IMG/VR virus record: IMGVR_UViG_3300045988_000083
Location: 1-6,497 of that record
Origin: a virus
Reading direction: 5' to 3' (one strand)
DNA length: 6,497 bases
Shown here: positions 1,553-6,497 of the stretch, in pieces
Numbering within the stretch: position 1 is the stretch's first letter
Layout: every line of letters begins with the position of its first letter
Notes under the pieces: generated by a model
The model's database searches: none
Told to the model about the DNA's origin: nothing
Seen by the model: only the letters and a program-made list of their open reading frames with translations
Program-made: the position numbers and the translations under genes

Positions 1553-2074
1553 ATGGAAAAGAAATGTTCAAATAAGATCTCTTTTGGTAATGGGTTTCGC
1601 AAGTTAGACCTTTCTATTTCTGCTGTTGGTTTTAATCCCATTGTTCGTGAAAAGGAGATAGCTGTTGAAATAGATCCTGTTTCTTTTTTTTGTATTGAAA
1701 CTGTTGGCGAAGGTGATGATAAGTGTTATCGTTATCGTTCAGATATTTCCATGTTACTTCATGCTAAGGATACTGCCAATAAGATTGGTATTGAAGGATT
1801 ACGTTATCTTTCCGAATCTCGTAGGACGAAGACATCTGCTATTCAATCTCAGTTAGATCAAATGGATGATCAACTTCTTTTGGATACTGTTAGATCTCGT
1901 CATTTGCAGTCTCCTGCTGAAATTCTTGCTTGGTCTGAAAGTTTAACCCAGGTAGCTCATGAATTGGAAATTCGTGTAGGTGCTGAAGCTCGTAAAAAAT
2001 ATGATGAGGAAATTTCTGCCGCTGCTGCTGCTAGCAGTAGCTCTTCTGCTGGATCATCTGATTCAACAGAATGA
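1553..2074 (+). CDS. Hypothetical 173-aa protein between VP1 and VP2; acidic, helical, with Ala/Ser-rich C-terminus; possible internal scaffolding protein (VP3-like)
   Basis: ATG at 1553 (MEKKCSNK...) lies in the same ttATGGAAAA context as the ORF at 4059; the TTG at 1535 in the ORF track is less likely. Stop is TGA at 2072-2074. In-frame T-ending codon bias matches VP1/VP2. The C-terminal tail AAAAASSSSSAGSSDSTE comes from a (GCT)4-containing tract at 2021-2032. The functional call rests only on position, size and charge, because I cannot recognise a family motif. Confidence 0.75.
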   Translation: MEKKCSNKISFGNGFRKLDLSISAVGFNPIVREKEIAVEIDPVSFFCIETVGEGDDKCYRYRSDISMLLHAKDTANKIGIEGLRYLSESRRTKTSAIQSQLDQMDDQLLLDTVRSRHLQSPAEILAWSESLTQVAHELEIRVGAEARKKYDEEISAAAAASSSSSAGSSDSTE

Positions 2075-3191
2075 TATTTTTTTAATTTTGTCCGCTTTAG
2101 ATCCTTTAAGCGCTGTTGGTCTTGGTCTTGGTTCCGTTTCAGGTATTGGTAATATCTTTAGTTCTGCTCATTCTAATTCTCAGAATATGAAGATTAATAG
2201 GATGAATAACGAGTTTAATGCTCGTGAAGCAGAGAAAGCTCGTCAATATCAGACTGAAATGTGGAATAAGACTAATGAGTGGAATTCTCCTAAGAATGTC
2301 CGTAAGCGTCTTGAAGAAGCTGGATATAATCCTTATTTGGGAATGGATTCTTCTAATGTTGGAACTGCTGGTAGTGCTGGATCTTCTTCTCCGGCTTCTG
2401 CTGCTTCTCCTATTCAGAATAATCCTATTCAATTTGACGGTTTTCAGAATGCTTTGTCTACGGCTATTCAGATGAGTAATTCTACTAAACTTTCTAATGC
2501 TGAGGTTTCTAACTTGCAAGGTCAGAAATCTTTGTCTGATGCTAAGGCTGCTGATACTCTTTCTAATATTGATTGGTATAAGCTTACTCCTGAGTATCGT
2601 AATTGGTTACAAACTACCGGTATGTCTCGCGCTCAGTTGTCTTACAATACTGATCTGCAAAATCTTGAGAATATGCGATGGATTAATAAGATTCAGCGTG
2701 CTCAACGTACTGAAATTCTTTTGTCTAACGATGCTAAGAGAATTATTAATCAGTATTTGGATGATTCTCAATCCTTACAGTTAAATTTGATGGCTAATCA
2801 GGCTTTTCAGGCTTTTTGTTCTGGACGTTTATCTCTTCAGCAGTGCAAAACTGAGGTTACTAAACAGTTTCTGAATATGGCTGAAACCGAAGGTCAGAAG
2901 ATCTCTAACAGGGTTGCTTCTGAAACTGCTGATCAATTGATTGGAGCTCTTCAGTGGCAGTATTCATCTGATGAAATGTATTCTCGTGGTTATGTTGGTT
3001 ATGCTCGTGAAGCTGGTCAAGCTCGTGGAAAAGGTGATGTTGCTAAAGGCGCGCTTGATGAGTATAATTATAATTCTCGTTATTGGAATACTGGAATCGA
3101 GTCTATTGGTCGTATTGGCAATGGTATTGGTTTACCTTTGATGCTTGGTCGTGGCTTTCGTGGATCTAAGCCTATTAGAGGTTTCCATTAA
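2001..3191 (+). CDS. VP2: Minor capsid / DNA pilot protein VP2 (phiX174 H-like); start codon uncertain
   Basis: A Gly/Ser-rich N-terminal segment (LSAVGLGLGSVSGIGNIFSSAHSNSQN) is followed by MNNEFNAREAEKARQYQTEMWNKTNEWNSPKNVRKRLEEAGYNPYL. The R-L-x-x-A-G-(L/Y)-N-P-x-L block (nt 2301-2339) is the hallmark I associate with gokushovirus/alpavirus VP2. Stop is TAA at 3189-3191. The first in-frame ATGs are at 2001 and 2004, overlapping the previous gene by 74 nt. See the finding on the ATGA/T7 alternative at 2071. Confidence 0.85.
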   Translation: MMRKFLPLLLLAVALLLDHLIQQNDIFLILSALDPLSAVGLGLGSVSGIGNIFSSAHSNSQNMKINRMNNEFNAREAEKARQYQTEMWNKTNEWNSPKNVRKRLEEAGYNPYLGMDSSNVGTAGSAGSSSPASAASPIQNNPIQFDGFQNALSTAIQMSNSTKLSNAEVSNLQGQKSLSDAKAADTLSNIDWYKLTPEYRNWLQTTGMSRAQLSYNTDLQNLENMRWINKIQRAQRTEILLSNDAKRIINQYLDDSQSLQLNLMANQAFQAFCSGRLSLQQCKTEVTKQFLNMAETEGQKISNRVASETADQLIGALQWQYSSDEMYSRGYVGYAREAGQARGKGDVAKGALDEYNYNSRYWNTGIESIGRIGNGIGLPLMLGRGFRGSKPIRGFH

Positions 3192-3221
3192 TTTATAAAT
3201 TAAATTTATAATCTTCTCTTG

Positions 3222-3258
3222 AAAGCCTCAGGTTCAGCTTGAGGCTTTTCTTTGTTTA
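3222..3258 (+). terminator. Rho-independent terminator downstream of VP2
   Basis: There is a perfect 9-bp stem, AAAGCCTCA (3222-3230) / TGAGGCTTT (3240-3248), with a 9-nt loop. It is followed by the T-rich run ttttctttgttt and sits 31 nt after the VP2 stop, at the end of the gene string. Confidence 0.75.
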
Positions 3259-3285
3259 TATAGCGCGAGCGACAAATAAGGGGTT

Positions 3286-3303
3286 CTAGGGGTATACCCC
3301 TAG
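3286..3303. repeat. 18-nt perfect palindrome CTAGGGGTATACCCCTAG (7-bp G/C-rich stem + TATA loop in ssDNA)
   Basis: Read directly: CTAGGGGTA (3286-3294) is the exact reverse complement of TACCCCTAG (3295-3303). It is non-coding and lies just downstream of the terminator. Confidence 0.9.
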
Positions 3304-3449
3304 AGCGTTAGCACCTTAGTATCGCCAAAGGCGCAGTCGCTTTAGCGACCTCTCTTGTCCCTAAGCTATTCTTAAGGTAGCTGTCCGTCTGCCTATATCT
3401 ACCCTTCCTCCCCTGTAAAATTAAAAAATAAAGCCTGCCGAATGGTGCA

Positions 3450-3466
3450 GTCCGTTCGTTACGGAC
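3450..3466. repeat. Perfect hairpin GTCCGT-tcgtt-ACGGAC
   Basis: 6-bp perfect stem (3450-3455 / 3461-3466) with a 5-nt loop, in the non-coding region. Confidence 0.85.
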
Positions 3467-3471
3467 CAGAT

Positions 3472-3490
3472 GTTATCGTGCAACGATAAC
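3472..3490. repeat. Perfect hairpin GTTATCG-tgcaa-CGATAAC
   Basis: 7-bp perfect stem (3472-3478 / 3484-3490) with a 5-nt loop, 5 nt downstream of the previous hairpin. Confidence 0.85.
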
Positions 3491-3508
3491 TGATTCTTGT
3501 ATCTTATT

Positions 3509-3517
3509 GGCGAAGCC
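3509..3517. repeat. GGCGAAGCC mini-hairpin containing the d(GCGAAGC) GAA-triloop motif
   Basis: GCGAAGC is read at 3510-3516 with an extra flanking G:C pair. A second C-GAA-G triloop hairpin, CCCGAAGGG, lies at 3530-3538, and a CGCC-AAA-GGCG hairpin at 3323-3333. Confidence 0.7.
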
Positions 3518-3537
3518 TATTTCATTTTTCCCGAAGG

Positions 3538-3562
3538 GTAATTGCTTTATCTCAGCAATTAC
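3538..3562. repeat. Perfect hairpin GTAATTGC-tttatctca-GCAATTAC
   Basis: 8-bp perfect stem (3538-3545 / 3555-3562) with a 9-nt loop. It can be extended by G3537:T3563, G3536:C3564 and A3535:T3565. Confidence 0.85.
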
Positions 3563-3651
3563 TCTCTATCCTTGTCATATATACGAAAAATGACACACCC
3601 CCCCTGTTCTTAATTACATATTACAATATTTGTTAAATTACTCCTAATTAA

Positions 3652-3684
3652 TTTGCATTTCTAAAATATTCTTTTTTATCTTTG
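3652..3684 (+). promoter_or_regulatory. Bacteroidetes-type sigma-AB promoter: -33 TTTG (3652-3655), 21-nt spacer, -7 TATCTTTG (3677-3684)
   Basis: It matches the Bacteroides consensus TTTG - about 19-21 nt - TAnnTTTG (consensus recalled from the B. fragilis promoter literature). It lies in an AT-rich stretch at the downstream edge of the non-coding region and points into the small-ORF/VP4/VP1 gene string. Confidence 0.55.
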
Positions 3685-3838
3685 CGGCACGATCAGAGGT
3701 GCAAAACTAATAGTGAGTAATTAGGCACTTGGCTTCGGCTATAAGTTTAATCGTCCTGCAATGATCAAGATAATACCGAGCTATTTATGGAAAATGAACA
3801 TCTCTGATTTTTTTTTATTAACTACAAAACCTGTCGAT

Positions 3839-4042
3839 ATGAAAATTACAGCTACTCAATGGATTGAAGTTGTTAAACTGATTGCTACTTTTGTTATTGG
3901 CGTTATTACTGCATTATTTGTTCATTCTTGCACAGTTTCTATGTCTGTTTCTAAGAATAATACTAATTCTTCTCAGAAAACAGAGCAGACATCTACTTCT
4001 TCTGTAGATTCTACTCGTATTAATATTAATACTAAACACTAA
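3839..4042 (+). CDS. Small single-pass membrane protein (67 aa from ATG 3839; the ORF is open back to ATG 3761/3794); candidate lysis or membrane-associated factor
   Basis: Sequence is MKITATQWIEVVKLIATFVIGVITALFVHSC..., followed by a Ser/Thr/Asn-rich tail. The hydrophobic core LIATFVIGVITALFV is at nt 3878-3922. T-ending codon bias is strong from 3839 onward and visibly weaker across 3761-3838, so I prefer the 3839 start. Stop is TAA at 4040-4042. Confidence 0.65.
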   Translation: MKITATQWIEVVKLIATFVIGVITALFVHSCTVSMSVSKNNTNSSQKTEQTSTSSVDSTRININTKH

Positions 4043-4058
4043 TTTAAATTTTATTGTT

Positions 4059-4253
4059 ATGGAAAAACAAGTATTGAAGAAAGAAAAAAAAACTTTTGTG
4101 AATGGTTTTATCATTTCAGTTCAGTTGCCCGGTGCTGTTCCACCGAAGCAGTCATTTGTAGACACTTCTTCTGCTTTAGCAGAAACTGTGGCTTCTGTTC
4201 TTGACTCTACTCCTCATGCTATCATTTTGGTTCAGGCTTCTGTAAACCTCTAA
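4059..4253 (+). CDS. Hypothetical 64-aa protein with Lys-rich N-terminus (MEKQVLKKEKKT...)
   Basis: ATG at 4059 sits in the ttATGGAAAA context shared with the 1553 gene. In-frame T-ending codon bias (act, ttt, ggt, gct, tct, gtt, cct) matches the other phage genes. The stop at 4251-4253 is 4 nt before the VP4 ATG. I recognise no family motif. Confidence 0.6.
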   Translation: MEKQVLKKEKKTFVNGFIISVQLPGAVPPKQSFVDTSSALAETVASVLDSTPHAIILVQASVNL

Positions 4254-4257
4254 TGCT

Positions 4258-6093
4258 ATGATACCTAAGGAAGAATTATTAACGAAATACCTTTTCACTG
4301 AATGTCTTCGACCTCAGAGAATTGTAAATCCTTATTCTCATGACGTGATATTCGCTCCATGTGGATATTGTAAGTCATGTATTATGAATAAGTCGAATTT
4401 TGCTACGGCTTATGCGATGAATATGTCTACGCATTTTAAATATTGTTATTTCGTTACTCTTACATACAAGGATATATTTCTTCCTTACTTGTCAGTCGAG
4501 GTTGTTCGGAGGTCTGGTAATCGTTATCTCTTTGATGAAAACTTTGAGACAATGGTTACCACCTCCGACCCTCGACTTTTAACTCCTGAATATTACCACG
4601 ATCGTGACCTTTCGCTCGATCCTGCTCAGAATGAAGTTGAACAGGTTTTTGATATAGGTTTCCAGTCTATTCCTCGTAATATTTCTGTAAGATCGAAAGG
4701 ATCATTTCGCTTTCGTTCCTTCGATGATGAACCTCTCAAATTCTGTGTTCCTATGAAACTTACTGATCTTCAGTCTATTCTGATCAAGGCTAATGGTCGT
4801 TATGATTATGGTTTGAAAAAGGTAGTTTACCCCTCTCTTGCTGATTGTAAGCTACAGATACCTGTTCTTCAATCTCGTGATATTGAATTATTTTTTAAAC
4901 GTTTACGAAGAAATTTAGATTCGCATGGATTCACTTCCTCGAAAATATGTTACTACGTTGTATCAGAATACGGACCTCAAACCTACCGTCCGCATTGGCA
5001 TTGTTTATTATTCTTTGACTCGGAAGAGATCACCAAAACACTTCGAGAAGATATATCTAAGGCTTGGTCCTACGGTCGTATCGATTACTCTCTCTCCCGT
5101 GGATCGGCTTCTTCCTATGTTGCGTCATACGTTAATAGTGCTGCTTGTTTACCATTCCTTTATGTTGGACAAAAAGAAATCCGTCCTAGATCCTTCCATT
5201 CCAAGGGATATGGCTCGAATAAAATCTTTCCTAAATCGTCCGACATTTCAGAAATTTCAAAGATATCCGATATCTTCTTTGATGGCGTTAACATCGATTC
5301 TGATGGCAAGGTTGTCAACATCCGGCCTGTACGGCAGAGTGAGCTTGCGGTATTCCCCCGATTCTCTAATGATTTTTTCTCAGATAGTGATACTTGTTGC
5401 AAGTTATTTCAGTCTGTCATTGAAACGCCCAAACGCCTCGTTTCGCGCGGCTATCTTGGAATAGATACTCCTGATTTTGGTTCTGATGGTTTTCGATTAT
5501 CTGATCTCGTACGTGCTTATTCTGAATACTATGAGCGGAATTTTACCGACTTTTCATTCAGCCTTCGTTTTCTTCGAGGTTATCGAACTCGTGATTATGC
5601 TGATGAATTGATATTCCGTGAATCTCGTCTTTTTGACGGCTATGTATTCAATAAGGATATGATTTTCGGTAGATTATATCGCTTGTTTGCTAAGGTTCTT
5701 CGTTGTTTTAAATTCTGGAATTTGAAACAATATACTGATTCTTGGTCTTTGAAGGCTGCTATTAAGAAAATCTGGTCATATGGATGGGAATATTGGAAAA
5801 AGAAGGAATATCGTTTCTTGACTACTTATTTCGAATATCTTGAAGGATGTAATGATGATGAACGATTGTTCCTTTTGGTTCGTACTATCGGTTCTGGCCT
5901 TGCCACTGATTCTCCTCATTCTTGGACTTATACTCAACGTGAAGACTATGTTAATTGCCTTCCCGATGATCTTTACAAGCGTTATATGAAAACTCTTAAA
6001 TGGTTGACTGCCCGTACGGAGAAGGTTTTGAAGGATAAGGTTAAACATAAAGAATTTAATGATATGCAAGGTGTTTTATTATTTTCTGATTAA
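4258..6093 (+). CDS. VP4: Rolling-circle replication initiation protein (HUH endonuclease; Microviridae VP4 / phiX174 protein A-like), 611 aa
   Basis: All three RCR superfamily motifs are present in the right order. Motif I is FVTLTY (aa 65-70, nt 4450-4467). Motif II (HUH) is HWHCLLF (aa 246-252, nt 4993-5013). Motif III is YVASYV with two Tyr spaced by three residues (Y287/Y291, nt 5116-5133), very close to the phiX174 protein A active site YVAKYV as I recall it. The N-terminal Cys cluster PCGYCKSC (nt 4357-4380) is typical of VP4 proteins. Confidence 0.93.
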   Translation: MIPKEELLTKYLFTECLRPQRIVNPYSHDVIFAPCGYCKSCIMNKSNFATAYAMNMSTHFKYCYFVTLTYKDIFLPYLSVEVVRRSGNRYLFDENFETMVTTSDPRLLTPEYYHDRDLSLDPAQNEVEQVFDIGFQSIPRNISVRSKGSFRFRSFDDEPLKFCVPMKLTDLQSILIKANGRYDYGLKKVVYPSLADCKLQIPVLQSRDIELFFKRLRRNLDSHGFTSSKICYYVVSEYGPQTYRPHWHCLLFFDSEEITKTLREDISKAWSYGRIDYSLSRGSASSYVASYVNSAACLPFLYVGQKEIRPRSFHSKGYGSNKIFPKSSDISEISKISDIFFDGVNIDSDGKVVNIRPVRQSELAVFPRFSNDFFSDSDTCCKLFQSVIETPKRLVSRGYLGIDTPDFGSDGFRLSDLVRAYSEYYERNFTDFSFSLRFLRGYRTRDYADELIFRESRLFDGYVFNKDMIFGRLYRLFAKVLRCFKFWNLKQYTDSWSLKAAIKKIWSYGWEYWKKKEYRFLTTYFEYLEGCNDDERLFLLVRTIGSGLATDSPHSWTYTQREDYVNCLPDDLYKRYMKTLKWLTARTEKVLKDKVKHKEFNDMQGVLLFSD

Positions 6094-6105
6094 ACTAATT
6101 TAATT

Positions 6106-6497
6106 ATGGCACATTTTACTGGCTTGAAAGAACTTCAAAATCATCCTCATAAGGCTGGTTTTGATATTGGTAGTAAAAATTTGTTTACTGCTAAGGTAGG
6201 TGAATTGCTTCCCCTTTATTGGGATGTGGCAATTCCTGATTGTGATTATGATATTGATTTAGCTTATTTTACTCGAACACGTCCAGTTCAGACGGCTGCT
6301 TATACTCGCATTCGTGAGTATTTTGATTTTTACGCAGTACCTTGTGATCTCCTTTGGAAATCATTTGATTCTGCTGTGATTCAAATGGGTCAGATTGCTC
6401 CTGTACAGGCTAAAACTCTGCTTGATCCTCTTACTGTTGGAACTGATATTCCTTGGTGTTATTTGTCTGATCTTTCCACTTCGCTTTATTATTCTTC
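6106..6497 (+). CDS. VP1: Major capsid protein VP1, N-terminal part; runs off the window end and continues at position 1 (6443 = 1)
   Basis: This ORF is missing from the supplied ORF track because it has no stop inside the window. ATG at 6106 gives MAHFTGLKELQNHPHKAGFDIGSKNLFTAKVGELLPLYWDVAIPDCDYDIDLAYFTRTRPVQTAAYTRIREYFDFYAVPCDLLWKSF... with no stop through 6497. The frame (6106 mod 3 = 1) equals the frame of the 3-1532 ORF after adding 6442. The pattern G-x-L-x-P ... R-x-x-P ... F-x-x-V-P-x-x-L-L-W is the conserved N-terminal signature of Microviridae major capsid proteins. Confidence 0.92.
   Translation, partial: MAHFTGLKELQNHPHKAGFDIGSKNLFTAKVGELLPLYWDVAIPDCDYDIDLAYFTRTRPVQTAAYTRIREYFDFYAVPCDLLWKSFDSAVIQMGQIAPVQAKTLLDPLTVGTDIPWCYLSDLSTSLYYS
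6443..6497. repeat. Terminal redundancy, right copy (identical to 1-55)
   Basis: Identical 55-mer to 1-55; see the left copy. Confidence 0.97.

Follow-up and report, generated by a model that had tools for sequence, protein, structure and literature searches.

The window analysed here, a stretch of 6,497 nucleotides (nt) from IMG/VR virus record IMGVR_UViG_3300045988_000083, is a complete and circularly permuted microvirus genome with an exact 55-nt terminal repeat (1-55 / 6443-6497) and a unit length of 6,442 nt. Its sole large non-coding region (3192-3760, 569 nt) contains a multi-helix cassette, named module 1, which was also found in other microviruses of two clades. Module 1 is a candidate host-primed complementary-strand origin, comparable to the single-strand origins (sso) of plasmids or to the complementary-strand origin, ori(-), of phage G4, and we give this reading, which is made from sequence data, a probability of about one in two. 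The evidence came from the structure of module 1 and its covariation, the strand that folds, the distribution of the cassette and its exchange between the clades, the host common to both clades and the absence of signals of an RNA gene. The two clades are called T-rich (the window's own) and A-rich, after the composition of the coding strand at four-fold degenerate sites, and individual relatives are cited by L numbers.

Module 1 consists of short helices, the last of which is H8, and of tracts that are mostly unpaired (Table 1). Covariation was tested with a curated structure of 38 pairs on 93 distinct copies of module 1, the relatives having been collected with nhmmer profiles. In this set, 99.9% of the cells (38 pairs x 93 copies) were canonical, and compensatory change was found in 13 of the 38 pairs, compared with 4.2 in shuffles, none of which (0/500) reached the observed value. 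When the partners were slid by 1-3 columns as a control, only 0-3 compensatory pairs were left. Thus, the stems that a preliminary description of the window had noted were kept in relatives by compensatory changes.

The base of helix H4, with an exchange of U-A, C-G and G-C, was among the strongest examples of covariation. In most relatives H4 has the form ACCACGACC-TTTT-GGTCGGGT, and four pairs of this helix carry changes on both sides. Helix H2 showed a compensation of C-G by A-T in L010, and its tip alternated between GGGG-CATA-CCCC and GGGC-GTT-GCCC. Helix H3 was constant among the copies designated type A, and in the wider family it was present as CGGC-GAA-GCCG, CGAC-GAA-GTCG, CGAC-GGA-GTCG, CGGC-GTA-GCCG, GGTC-GGA-GACC or CGCT-AAA-GGCG (the last with a T·G pair), demonstrating compensatory change across types with the loops AAA/AGA or GNA. 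The mini-hairpin H6, generally CY-GCAT-RG, covaried at columns 197 and 202 (U-A in 49 copies and C-G in 43), and one pair of H8 was divided equally between A-U (46) and U-A (46), with a loop of GAA, GCA or GTA. H7 was missing in L126 and L012 and was represented by GCGG-CGAGT-CCGC in L131 and L145. In addition to the helices, the motif CCCTGTAAAATT in the unpaired tract was invariant in 93/93 type A copies. A second copy of this motif was present in L009, where the form CTGTAAA(A)TTTTAAATAA was seen at about 3100-3150, and in L126 the motif was the end-point of a deletion; a deletion between two CTGTAAA(A)TTTTAAATAA copies apparently removed H6-H8 from this genome.

The strand that folds was read from the one-sided changes. 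In the core helices, 22 of 22 such changes gave G·T on the window + strand and none gave A·C, the count being limited to helices supported by covariation. Counts of G·U and A·C on the RNAalifold structures of each strand were dropped as circular, because the prediction for each strand gathers its own G·U pairs. Two variants of H3 contained T·G, and the G-N-A loops of the mini-hairpins would be T-N-C on the opposite strand. The exclusive G·T changes, the invariant T·G wobble of H2 and the strand-specific G-N-A loops together indicate that the folded strand aligns with the window + strand, and the equivalent of this strand is the folded one also in the clade where it is antisense to the genes.

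The distribution of module 1 did not follow the relationships of the genomes. When the non-coding region was compared with phage records by BLAST, positions 3245-3491 were 77-80% identical to a non-coding stretch in microviruses of 5.9 kb that are not related to the window (Dulem virus 218, Tortoise microvirus 13 and others), and the only matches were seven microviruses, all of them carriers of module 1. In genomes of the Dulem virus 218 type, module 1 lies on the strand opposite to the genes and abuts the stop codon of the replication protein gene (Rep). Pattern scans recovered module 1 from IMG/VR (23, 34 and 60 contigs) and from metagenomes (76 contigs); almost all of these contigs have the length of a microvirus and come from the gut. 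No copy was found in 185,579 bacterial species genomes scanned with two different patterns, and plasmid BLAST with module 1 gave no match. A diverged form of the cassette, designated type B, was found by a scan for the invariant core TAGCACCTTGATATCG; it occurred in T-rich and A-rich genomes alike, always on the T-rich strand, and the type B homologues hold the same site in distant relatives.

Between the two clades the Reps are barely alignable, with similarity at the level of motifs only, while the module 1 copies are 77-86% identical. Since module 1 is common to clades with such different Reps, it is not Rep-specific, and a Rep-specific origin was ruled out as its identity. Clustering of the element also mixed the clades: L036 (T-rich) was 0.86 identical to L001 (A-rich) versus 0.78 to its own clade, and L151 (T-rich) was 0.85 identical to L167 (A-rich) versus 0.71 to its own clade. 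These mixed clusters imply at least two exchanges between the clades. The 3,955-nt contig L090 (OGUJ01005774.1) carries a flank of the A-rich clade 5' of module 1 and, on the 3' side, the second hairpin set (module 2) of the window's clade; the contig may be a true recombinant between the clades, or the assembly may have joined two genomes through the 235-nt cassette that they share. In L087 (1-7000 versus 7400-13092), DNA of 62% GC is fused to microvirus DNA of 40% GC, and in L045 (1-6026 versus 5812-10289), which carries genes for Hsp33, a methyltransferase and phospholipase D, the junction is inside the capsid gene. Both had been considered as proviruses, but they are probably chimeric assemblies and were excluded from the analysis.

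The orientation of module 1 followed the base composition of the genome. In the window's clade (Rep of approximately 611-615 amino acids) the cassette runs in the direction of the genes and is located between the pilot gene and Rep, and in approximately 108 contigs of the other clade (Rep of approximately 325-460 amino acids) it is antisense. At four-fold sites the coding strand of the window's clade contained A 0.124, C 0.119, G 0.077 and T 0.681, and that of the other clade A 0.630, C 0.101, G 0.128 and T 0.140, which on the complementary strand is A 0.140, C 0.128, G 0.101 and T 0.630. In every carrier classified (approximately 87 genomes by four-fold-site composition and 22 further loci), the cassette was sense where the four-fold sites were 53-79% T and antisense where they were 60-68% A. 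In single-stranded DNA (ssDNA) phages the virion strand is biased to T and NNT codons are favoured, through C-to-T pressure on the single strand (PMC3278643). Composition was not used alone as a marker of polarity, because the classical gokushoviruses disagree, phiMH2K (L116) being A-rich and Chp2 (L118) and SpV4 (L117) T-rich at four-fold sites; by itself the skew is only suggestive.

Both clades were linked to one kind of host by a CRISPR array. The contig L152 (IMGVR_UViG_3300008060_000094) contains at 4313-9270 an array of 65 repeats, the repeat being identical at 46 of 47 positions to the type II repeat of Bacteroides fragilis 638R (reference repeat, PMC6390457). At least 25 of its 64 spacers matched the collected microviruses, approximately 13 of them in the A-rich clade and approximately 11 in the T-rich clade, and one spacer (8483-8512) matched module 1 itself. 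In the window, spacers matched 811-840 (2 mismatches) and 4257-4282 (26 of 29 nt, exact). Because the array targets both clades, both infect the same kind of host, and their opposite synonymous composition is thus not due to host codon usage. Deamination linked to transcription would give T-rich coding strands in both clades, not A-rich ones in one of them, and no explanation for opposite four-fold composition in clades of one host was found in a literature search. It is difficult to account for mirror-image composition in phages that share a host unless their packaged strands are opposite. An A-rich sub-group (L025, L026, L030 and L032) has an extra hairpin block about 100 nt 3' of module 1, between module 1 and Rep, which includes AAGCTC-GGA-GAGCTT and GGTGT-TTCG-ACACC and is targeted by two spacers of L152.

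The preliminary description had placed the candidate origin at 3430-3565, as a tandem array of perfect hairpins. The individual hairpins were confirmed by direct reading and the repeat finder: the 6-bp stem GTCCGT/ACGGAC (3450-3455/3461-3466), the two C-GAA-G mini-hairpins GGCGAAGCC (3509-3517) and CCCGAAGGG (3530-3538), the exact GCGAAGC at 3510-3516 within GGCGAAGCC, and CGCC-AAA-GGCG further upstream (3323-3333) were all present. The hairpin at 3472-3490 (GTTATCGT-GCA-ACGATAAC) was present with a stem of 8 bp where 7 had been claimed, and that at 3538-3562 with a stem of 9 bp where 8 had been claimed (GTAATTGCT/AGCAATTAC, 3538-3546/3554-3562); the latter can be extended to 12 nt at 92% over 3535-3565. 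The array itself did not stand, for the hairpins are not copies of one unit and the boundaries at 3430 and 3565 cut across two separately evolving modules. The first two hairpins of the cluster are H7 and H8, with which module 1 ends, the other three belong to module 2, and further hairpins lie upstream of the noted cluster (3283-3306 and 3336-3349).

The folding check that had been proposed supported the structure. As + strand DNA, 3430-3565 gave -22.4 kcal/mol versus -11.3 +/- 2.7 in 200 dinucleotide shuffles, of which none was as good (z -4.09), and the minus strand folded nearly as well (z -3.75). The wider stretch 3259-3606 gave z -4.30 on the + strand and -3.66 on the - strand. G-N-A triloop hairpins with a stem of at least 3 bp were found three times in the 569-nt non-coding region, with 0.43 expected (P = 0.014).

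Module 2 is a separate set of hairpins with GNA and GNNA mini-hairpins. Both of its C-GAA-G mini-hairpins retained 3-bp stems while their loops varied: at GGC-GAA-GCC (3509-3517) the loop was GAA, GCA (L133) or GAAA (L004), and at CCC-GAA-GGG (3530-3538) it was GAA, GGA (L103), GTA (Dulem virus 245) or GTAA (L004), always G-N-A or G-NN-A. The 9-bp stem at 3538-3562 showed a compensation of G-C by A-T within the clade, and in MT837631 (L004) and Dulem virus 245 (L149) GGTTTTCGG/CCGAAAACT took the place of the entire stem while the loop stayed similar, a replacement taken from direct reading since MAFFT set these stems one column out of register. The poly-C tract next to the TGTCAT...ATGACA hairpin, on its 3' side (C7, 3598-3604), ranged from C4 to C9 among close relatives and bears a loose likeness to the run of C that precedes the origin sequence of phiX174. 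In L133, module 2 is in tandem duplicate (6264-6330 and 6373-6472), one copy being degenerate with G·T wobbles. Module 2 may be a second initiation signal or a Rep-side origin.

The non-coding region is composed of five parts: a terminator-like hairpin, module 1, a short variable spacer, module 2 and a promoter. The terminator-like hairpin, identified by a terminator scan and the repeat finder, follows the pilot gene directly, and its T-tract is only approximately 9 nt from the start of module 1; equivalent hairpins with T-runs were present in the relatives L009 and L036. The promoter, which we take to be of the Bacteroidetes type from the consensus of Bayley et al. (2000), is the 3' border of the structured region in the window. 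Its TTTG...TAnnTTTG pair was also found in relatives of the window and, on the coding strand, in the other clade. The structured region apparently occupies an untranscribed gap from terminator to promoter. All genes of the window are on the + strand. The cumulative GC skew has its maximum at the start of the non-coding region (about 3000-3450) and declines to about 5400, so the sign of the skew switches at the structured region.

Table 1. Positions and sequence forms of the elements of the non-coding region and of the genes in the window
Feature	Position	Strand	Form and remarks
Module 1	3259-3492	+ (folded strand)	ATAGCGCGAGCG...CGATAACT; multi-helix cassette of ~235 nt, common to ~170 microvirus contigs of two clades
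Helix H2	3283-3306	+	GTTCTAGGGG-TATA-CCCCTAGAGC; invariant T·G wobble
Helix H3	3323-3333	+	CGCC-AAA-GGCG mini-hairpin
Helix H4	3336-3349	+	GTCGC-TTTA-GCGAC (form in the window)
Pyrimidine-rich tract	3350-3432	+	mostly unpaired; ends in CCCTGTAAAATT (3411-3422) and an A-rich run
Mini-hairpin H6	3438-3445	+	CC-GAAT-GG
Helix H7	3450-3466	+	GTCCG-TTCGTTA-CGGAC; 3 pairs changed on both sides
Helix H8	3472-3490	+	GTTATCGT-GCA-ACGATAAC; G-N-A triloop; 4 compensatory pairs
Module 2	3509-3604	+	clade-specific hairpin set; almost invariant in the window's clade
Module 2 mini-hairpin	3509-3517	+	GGC-GAA-GCC, with d(GCGAAGC); only in the T-rich clade
Module 2 mini-hairpin	3530-3538	+	CCC-GAA-GGG
Module 2 9-bp hairpin	3538-3562	+	GTAATTGCT-TTATCTC-AGCAATTAC
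Module 2 hairpin and C7 tract	3573-3604	+	TGTCAT-ATATACGAAAA-ATGACA, then C7; nearly invariant in the T-rich clade
Terminator-like hairpin	3221-3249	+	13 pairs, then TTTTCTTTGTTT
Promoter, presumed Bacteroidetes type	3652-3684	+	TTTG (3652-3655), 21 nt, TATCTTTG (3677-3684); upstream of the small open reading frames and Rep
Major capsid protein gene	across the genome ends, end at 1532	+	
Open reading frame, 179 amino acids	1535-2074	+	
DNA pilot protein gene	1980-3191	+	
Two small open reading frames	3761-4253	+	
Rep gene	4258-6093	+	611 amino acids

Two further observations were made inside Rep. An open reading frame of 179 amino acids in another frame (4925-5464, +) is kept open in relatives, with 181 amino acids and 94-98% identity in eight close relatives and 183-233 amino acids and approximately 40-43% identity in MT837631 and Dulem virus 245, and it may be a real overprinted gene. 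An imperfect hairpin at 4510-4566 (+) matched the mir-7385 precursor of Rfam at 27 bits against a gathering score of 69 (E = 0.009), which is almost certainly a chance match.

For a host-primed origin, the following course of events is proposed. When the genome enters the cell, the single-strand binding protein SSB would coat the DNA, and the stable hairpins, several of them with G-N-A or G-NN-A loops, would remain folded. The hairpins together with the invariant unpaired CCCTGTAAAATT tract, which is the candidate start region, would then be recognised by the host RNA polymerase or primase, and the host machinery would make the primer for complementary-strand synthesis, by which the ssDNA is converted to the replicative form. 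In such a course the folded molecule would be DNA, the function of module 1 would be priming, and the T-rich strand would be the virion strand in both clades. With a host factor instead of the phage Rep as its partner, the cassette could be interchanged between unrelated microvirus clades of the same host. The identified folded strand, the mutational signature of ssDNA, the independence from Rep, the exchange, the restriction to ssDNA phages and the position in an untranscribed gap together give an sso-like profile, which is likewise that of the complementary-strand signals of G4 and phiX174. The earlier proposal of a priming signal for the ssDNA-to-replicative-form step is in agreement with the structure, strand specificity, location, Rep independence and microvirus restriction of the cassette and with the T-rich strand on which it lies. 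It needed correction in its boundaries; moreover, the hairpins at 3450-3490 are dispensable in some relatives, and the packaged strand would be antisense in most carriers.

Several points weigh against a host-primed origin. For the large A-rich clade, this reading demands a packaged strand that is antisense to the genes, contrary to the accepted positive polarity of Microviridae, and an A-rich coding strand is also found in the classical gokushovirus phiMH2K. The link between orientation and skew rests on only 2-3 independent exchange events. H6-H8 are absent in L126 and L012, and H8 in L080, although these genomes are apparently complete; since H6-H8 are absent or replaced in some relatives, the essential core of module 1 is the 5' 165 nt. 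No sequence similarity was found between module 1 and any characterised origin. C-to-T mutation bias, instead of selection, could account for part of the G·T excess, but by our own estimate the lack of any A·C at approximately 12 independent sites would be highly improbable despite such a bias. Covariation alone does not separate the folding of RNA from that of DNA.

This last point bears on the main alternative, that module 1 is the gene of a structured non-coding RNA (a phage small RNA, decoy or regulator) transcribed from the folded strand, which we consider unlikely. The CU-rich unpaired tract with CCUCC could pair with purine-rich mRNA leaders, and the gene would move as a self-contained unit. 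Covariation and tolerance of G·U are as compatible with RNA as with DNA, the boundaries are sharp and common to both clades, the unpaired tracts are invariant, GAAA and GUAA loops are found in L004, and an orientation independent of the neighbouring genes is normal for such a gene. The expected signals of an RNA gene were lacking, however. In Rfam 15 neither the window nor L001 had a match that came close to a gathering score, and ARAGORN found no tRNA or tmRNA. No conserved -7/-33 motif was present within 160 nt upstream in the cassette's own direction; such motifs were scattered in 20/92 flanks and were absent from all 10 listed genomes of the T-rich clade except the window, which has one distant match within its pilot gene, whereas TAnnTTTG was fixed at -67 on the opposite strand in 58/92 flanks. 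The terminator in the window ends just before module 1, and in the A-rich clade H8 is followed not by a U-tract but by CTAGAAAGGAC, the antisense Rep stop codon, leading straight into antisense Rep. Antisense genes are not known in microviruses. Module 1 was never found in double-stranded DNA (dsDNA) phages or in bacteria in the contig scans and the scan of 185,579 genomes. C-G-closed G-N-A triloops that swap with G-NN-A are considered a hallmark of DNA mini-hairpins and not of RNA, as reportedly described by Hirao and Yoshizawa, and an RNA gene gives no reason why the orientation should follow the skew through repeated exchanges.

Another DNA-level role for the structured region, as a Rep nick site or plus-strand origin, a condensation or packaging signal, or a terminator or insulator between late and early operons, was judged slightly less probable again. 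In both clades the location extends from the last gene of one operon to the main promoter, both strands fold well, and H8 together with TGATTCTTGT was terminator-like by scan. A nick-site element would set the packaged strand and hence also follow the skew, and module 2 and the TGTCAT...ATGACA hairpin with its poly-C are nearly invariant in the clade, as would be expected for a Rep-specific site. For module 1, by contrast, a Rep-specific origin should co-vary with Rep, and the cassette spans Reps that are barely alignable. A terminator consists of one hairpin and a T-run and not of 6-8 helices with invariant single-stranded motifs, and a role as dsDNA or a cruciform does not explain why the one-sided changes are exclusively G·T or why the G-N-A loops are specific to one strand. 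Packaging of microviruses is coupled to Rep-driven replication and needs no pac site, as in phiX174. The alternative function of the hairpin cluster as a packaging signal, which had also been suggested in the preliminary description, is thus unlikely.

Two other explanations fared worse. A selfish, non-autonomous element of the IS200/IS605 type, associated with palindromes and inserting strand-specifically into ssDNA without benefit to the phage, would account for the sharp ends in unrelated genomes, the hairpins near both ends and the link of orientation to the single-stranded strand. It is very improbable given that no copies were found in the 185,579 bacterial species genomes or in plasmids, that each clade has one fixed site without a common flanking target motif, that the internal compensatory evolution over more than 100 genomes indicates selection on the whole structure, and that the diverged type B occupies the same site in distant relatives. 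The least probable is an attachment site for integration by host XerC/D, as proposed for Alpavirinae proviruses of Bacteroidetes, which are flanked by dif-like sites and have their ends in the pilot-to-Rep non-coding region (PMC3091885), CTX-phi being known to use a folded ssDNA attP (cited in PMC3091885): the non-coding region contains no dif-like sequence, the window comes no closer to the 28-nt bacterial consensus than 5 mismatches, at a site in the capsid gene, no bacterial genome with module 1 was found, and the two long contigs that join microvirus and bacterial DNA look chimeric.

Among characterised systems, the closest likeness was to the sso of plasmids. The plasmid sso is a folded ssDNA of approximately 160 nt which acts in one orientation only, on the displaced strand, is primed by host RNA polymerase, limits the host range and is common to unrelated plasmids (PMC5703833). 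The ssoA, ssoU, ssoT and ssoW types are non-coding, 150-300 nt long and heavily folded as ssDNA, and the structure of module 1 is of this kind. Other features of sso are recognition by the host RNA polymerase, a flexible position relative to rep, sharing as a cassette and the recombination site RSB (PMC5703833). Like an sso, module 1 does not depend on the Rep type and is found as a cassette in unrelated replicons that use one host, and it appears to match all the sso features that can be examined in a sequence. The two differ in that plasmid BLAST gave no sequence similarity, that module 1 belongs to Bacteroidetes phages and sso to Gram-positive plasmids, and that no RSB-like sequence was recognised. 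Type B copies contain TAGCGT or TAGCGA in an unpaired linker and type A copies TAGCGC; TAGCGT is the CS-6 motif of ssoA (PMC4598088), but a hexamer may be present by chance and is no evidence of membership.

The ori(-) of G4 and the related primosome assembly site of phiX174 are intergenic clusters of stable hairpins on the virion strand that depend on the host and not on Rep, and module 1 would resemble them in this. G4 also has an unpaired tract with CTG flanked by hairpins, to which the invariant CCCTGTAAAATT would correspond here. CTG is the start triplet of Escherichia coli primase. The ori(-) of G4 has three hairpins in approximately 140 nt, whereas module 1 has 6-8 helices and is accompanied by a second module; we know of no sequence similarity between them, nor of any G4-type origin that has moved between distant phages or that lies in inverted orientation to the genes. 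The intergenic region of M13/f1 contains the packaging signal, a minus origin that RNA polymerase reads as a promoter-like duplex, and the plus origin. Similar to this region and to Frpo of the F plasmid, in which several hairpins with separate roles share one region, modules 1 and 2 lie side by side, but no promoter-like -33/-7 pair was found in the stems, no packaging hairpin is needed in microviruses and there is no homology.

The d(GCGAAGC) and d(GCGAAAGC) mini-hairpins of Hirao and colleagues are reportedly extraordinarily stable. An exact C-GAA-G is present at 3510-3516, and the loops at homologous sites (GAA, GGA, GTA, GCA, GAAA and GTAA) fit closure by a sheared G·A pair; these mini-hairpins are a structural motif and not a functional family, and the same loops are possible in RNA. 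In the reekeekee- and roodoodoo-microviruses, intergenic hairpins with compensatory substitutions were proposed as possible minus-strand origins, as yet unproven (Virus Evol 2022, PMC9865509). Those are one or two clade-specific hairpins, whereas module 1 is a cross-clade cassette of 235 nt with an identified folded strand and an orientation that follows the skew. By these comparisons module 1 was classified as a putative single-strand initiation signal without sequence homology to the characterised ones, and the cassette and its exchange are apparently undescribed: the literature search found no description of the cassette, of its inter-clade exchange, of the rule linking orientation and skew, or of negative-sense microviruses.

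A host-primed origin in module 1 also leads to a tentative proposal concerning polarity. The A-rich, gokushovirus-like clade (the Dulem virus 218 / Tortoise microvirus 13 group) could package the strand complementary to its mRNAs and would then be a negative-sense lineage of Microviridae, a possibility that we hold to be less likely than its opposite but worth stating. In that case the polarity would have been flipped when a portable origin cassette, primed by the host, was inverted or acquired anew, and phiMH2K may be in the same category. The biology of rolling-circle replication does not forbid a negative-sense microvirus, because transcription requires the double-stranded form anyway.

In the human gut, few DNA viruses are more abundant than the Bacteroidetes microviruses, which are without a defined replication signal. 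Module 1 offers a candidate that is precisely bounded, supported by covariation and assigned to a folded strand, and that behaves as a portable module among unrelated phages of the same host, with a direct CRISPR-based link of that host to Bacteroides. The orientation of the cassette together with the skew at four-fold sites may serve as a simple sequence marker for predicting the packaged strand. If the proposal is true, module 1 would provide a working origin for ssDNA vectors of Bacteroides, and a major clade of gut phages would be negative-sense, which would change the reading of ssDNA virome libraries, strand-specific mapping and the taxonomy of microviruses.

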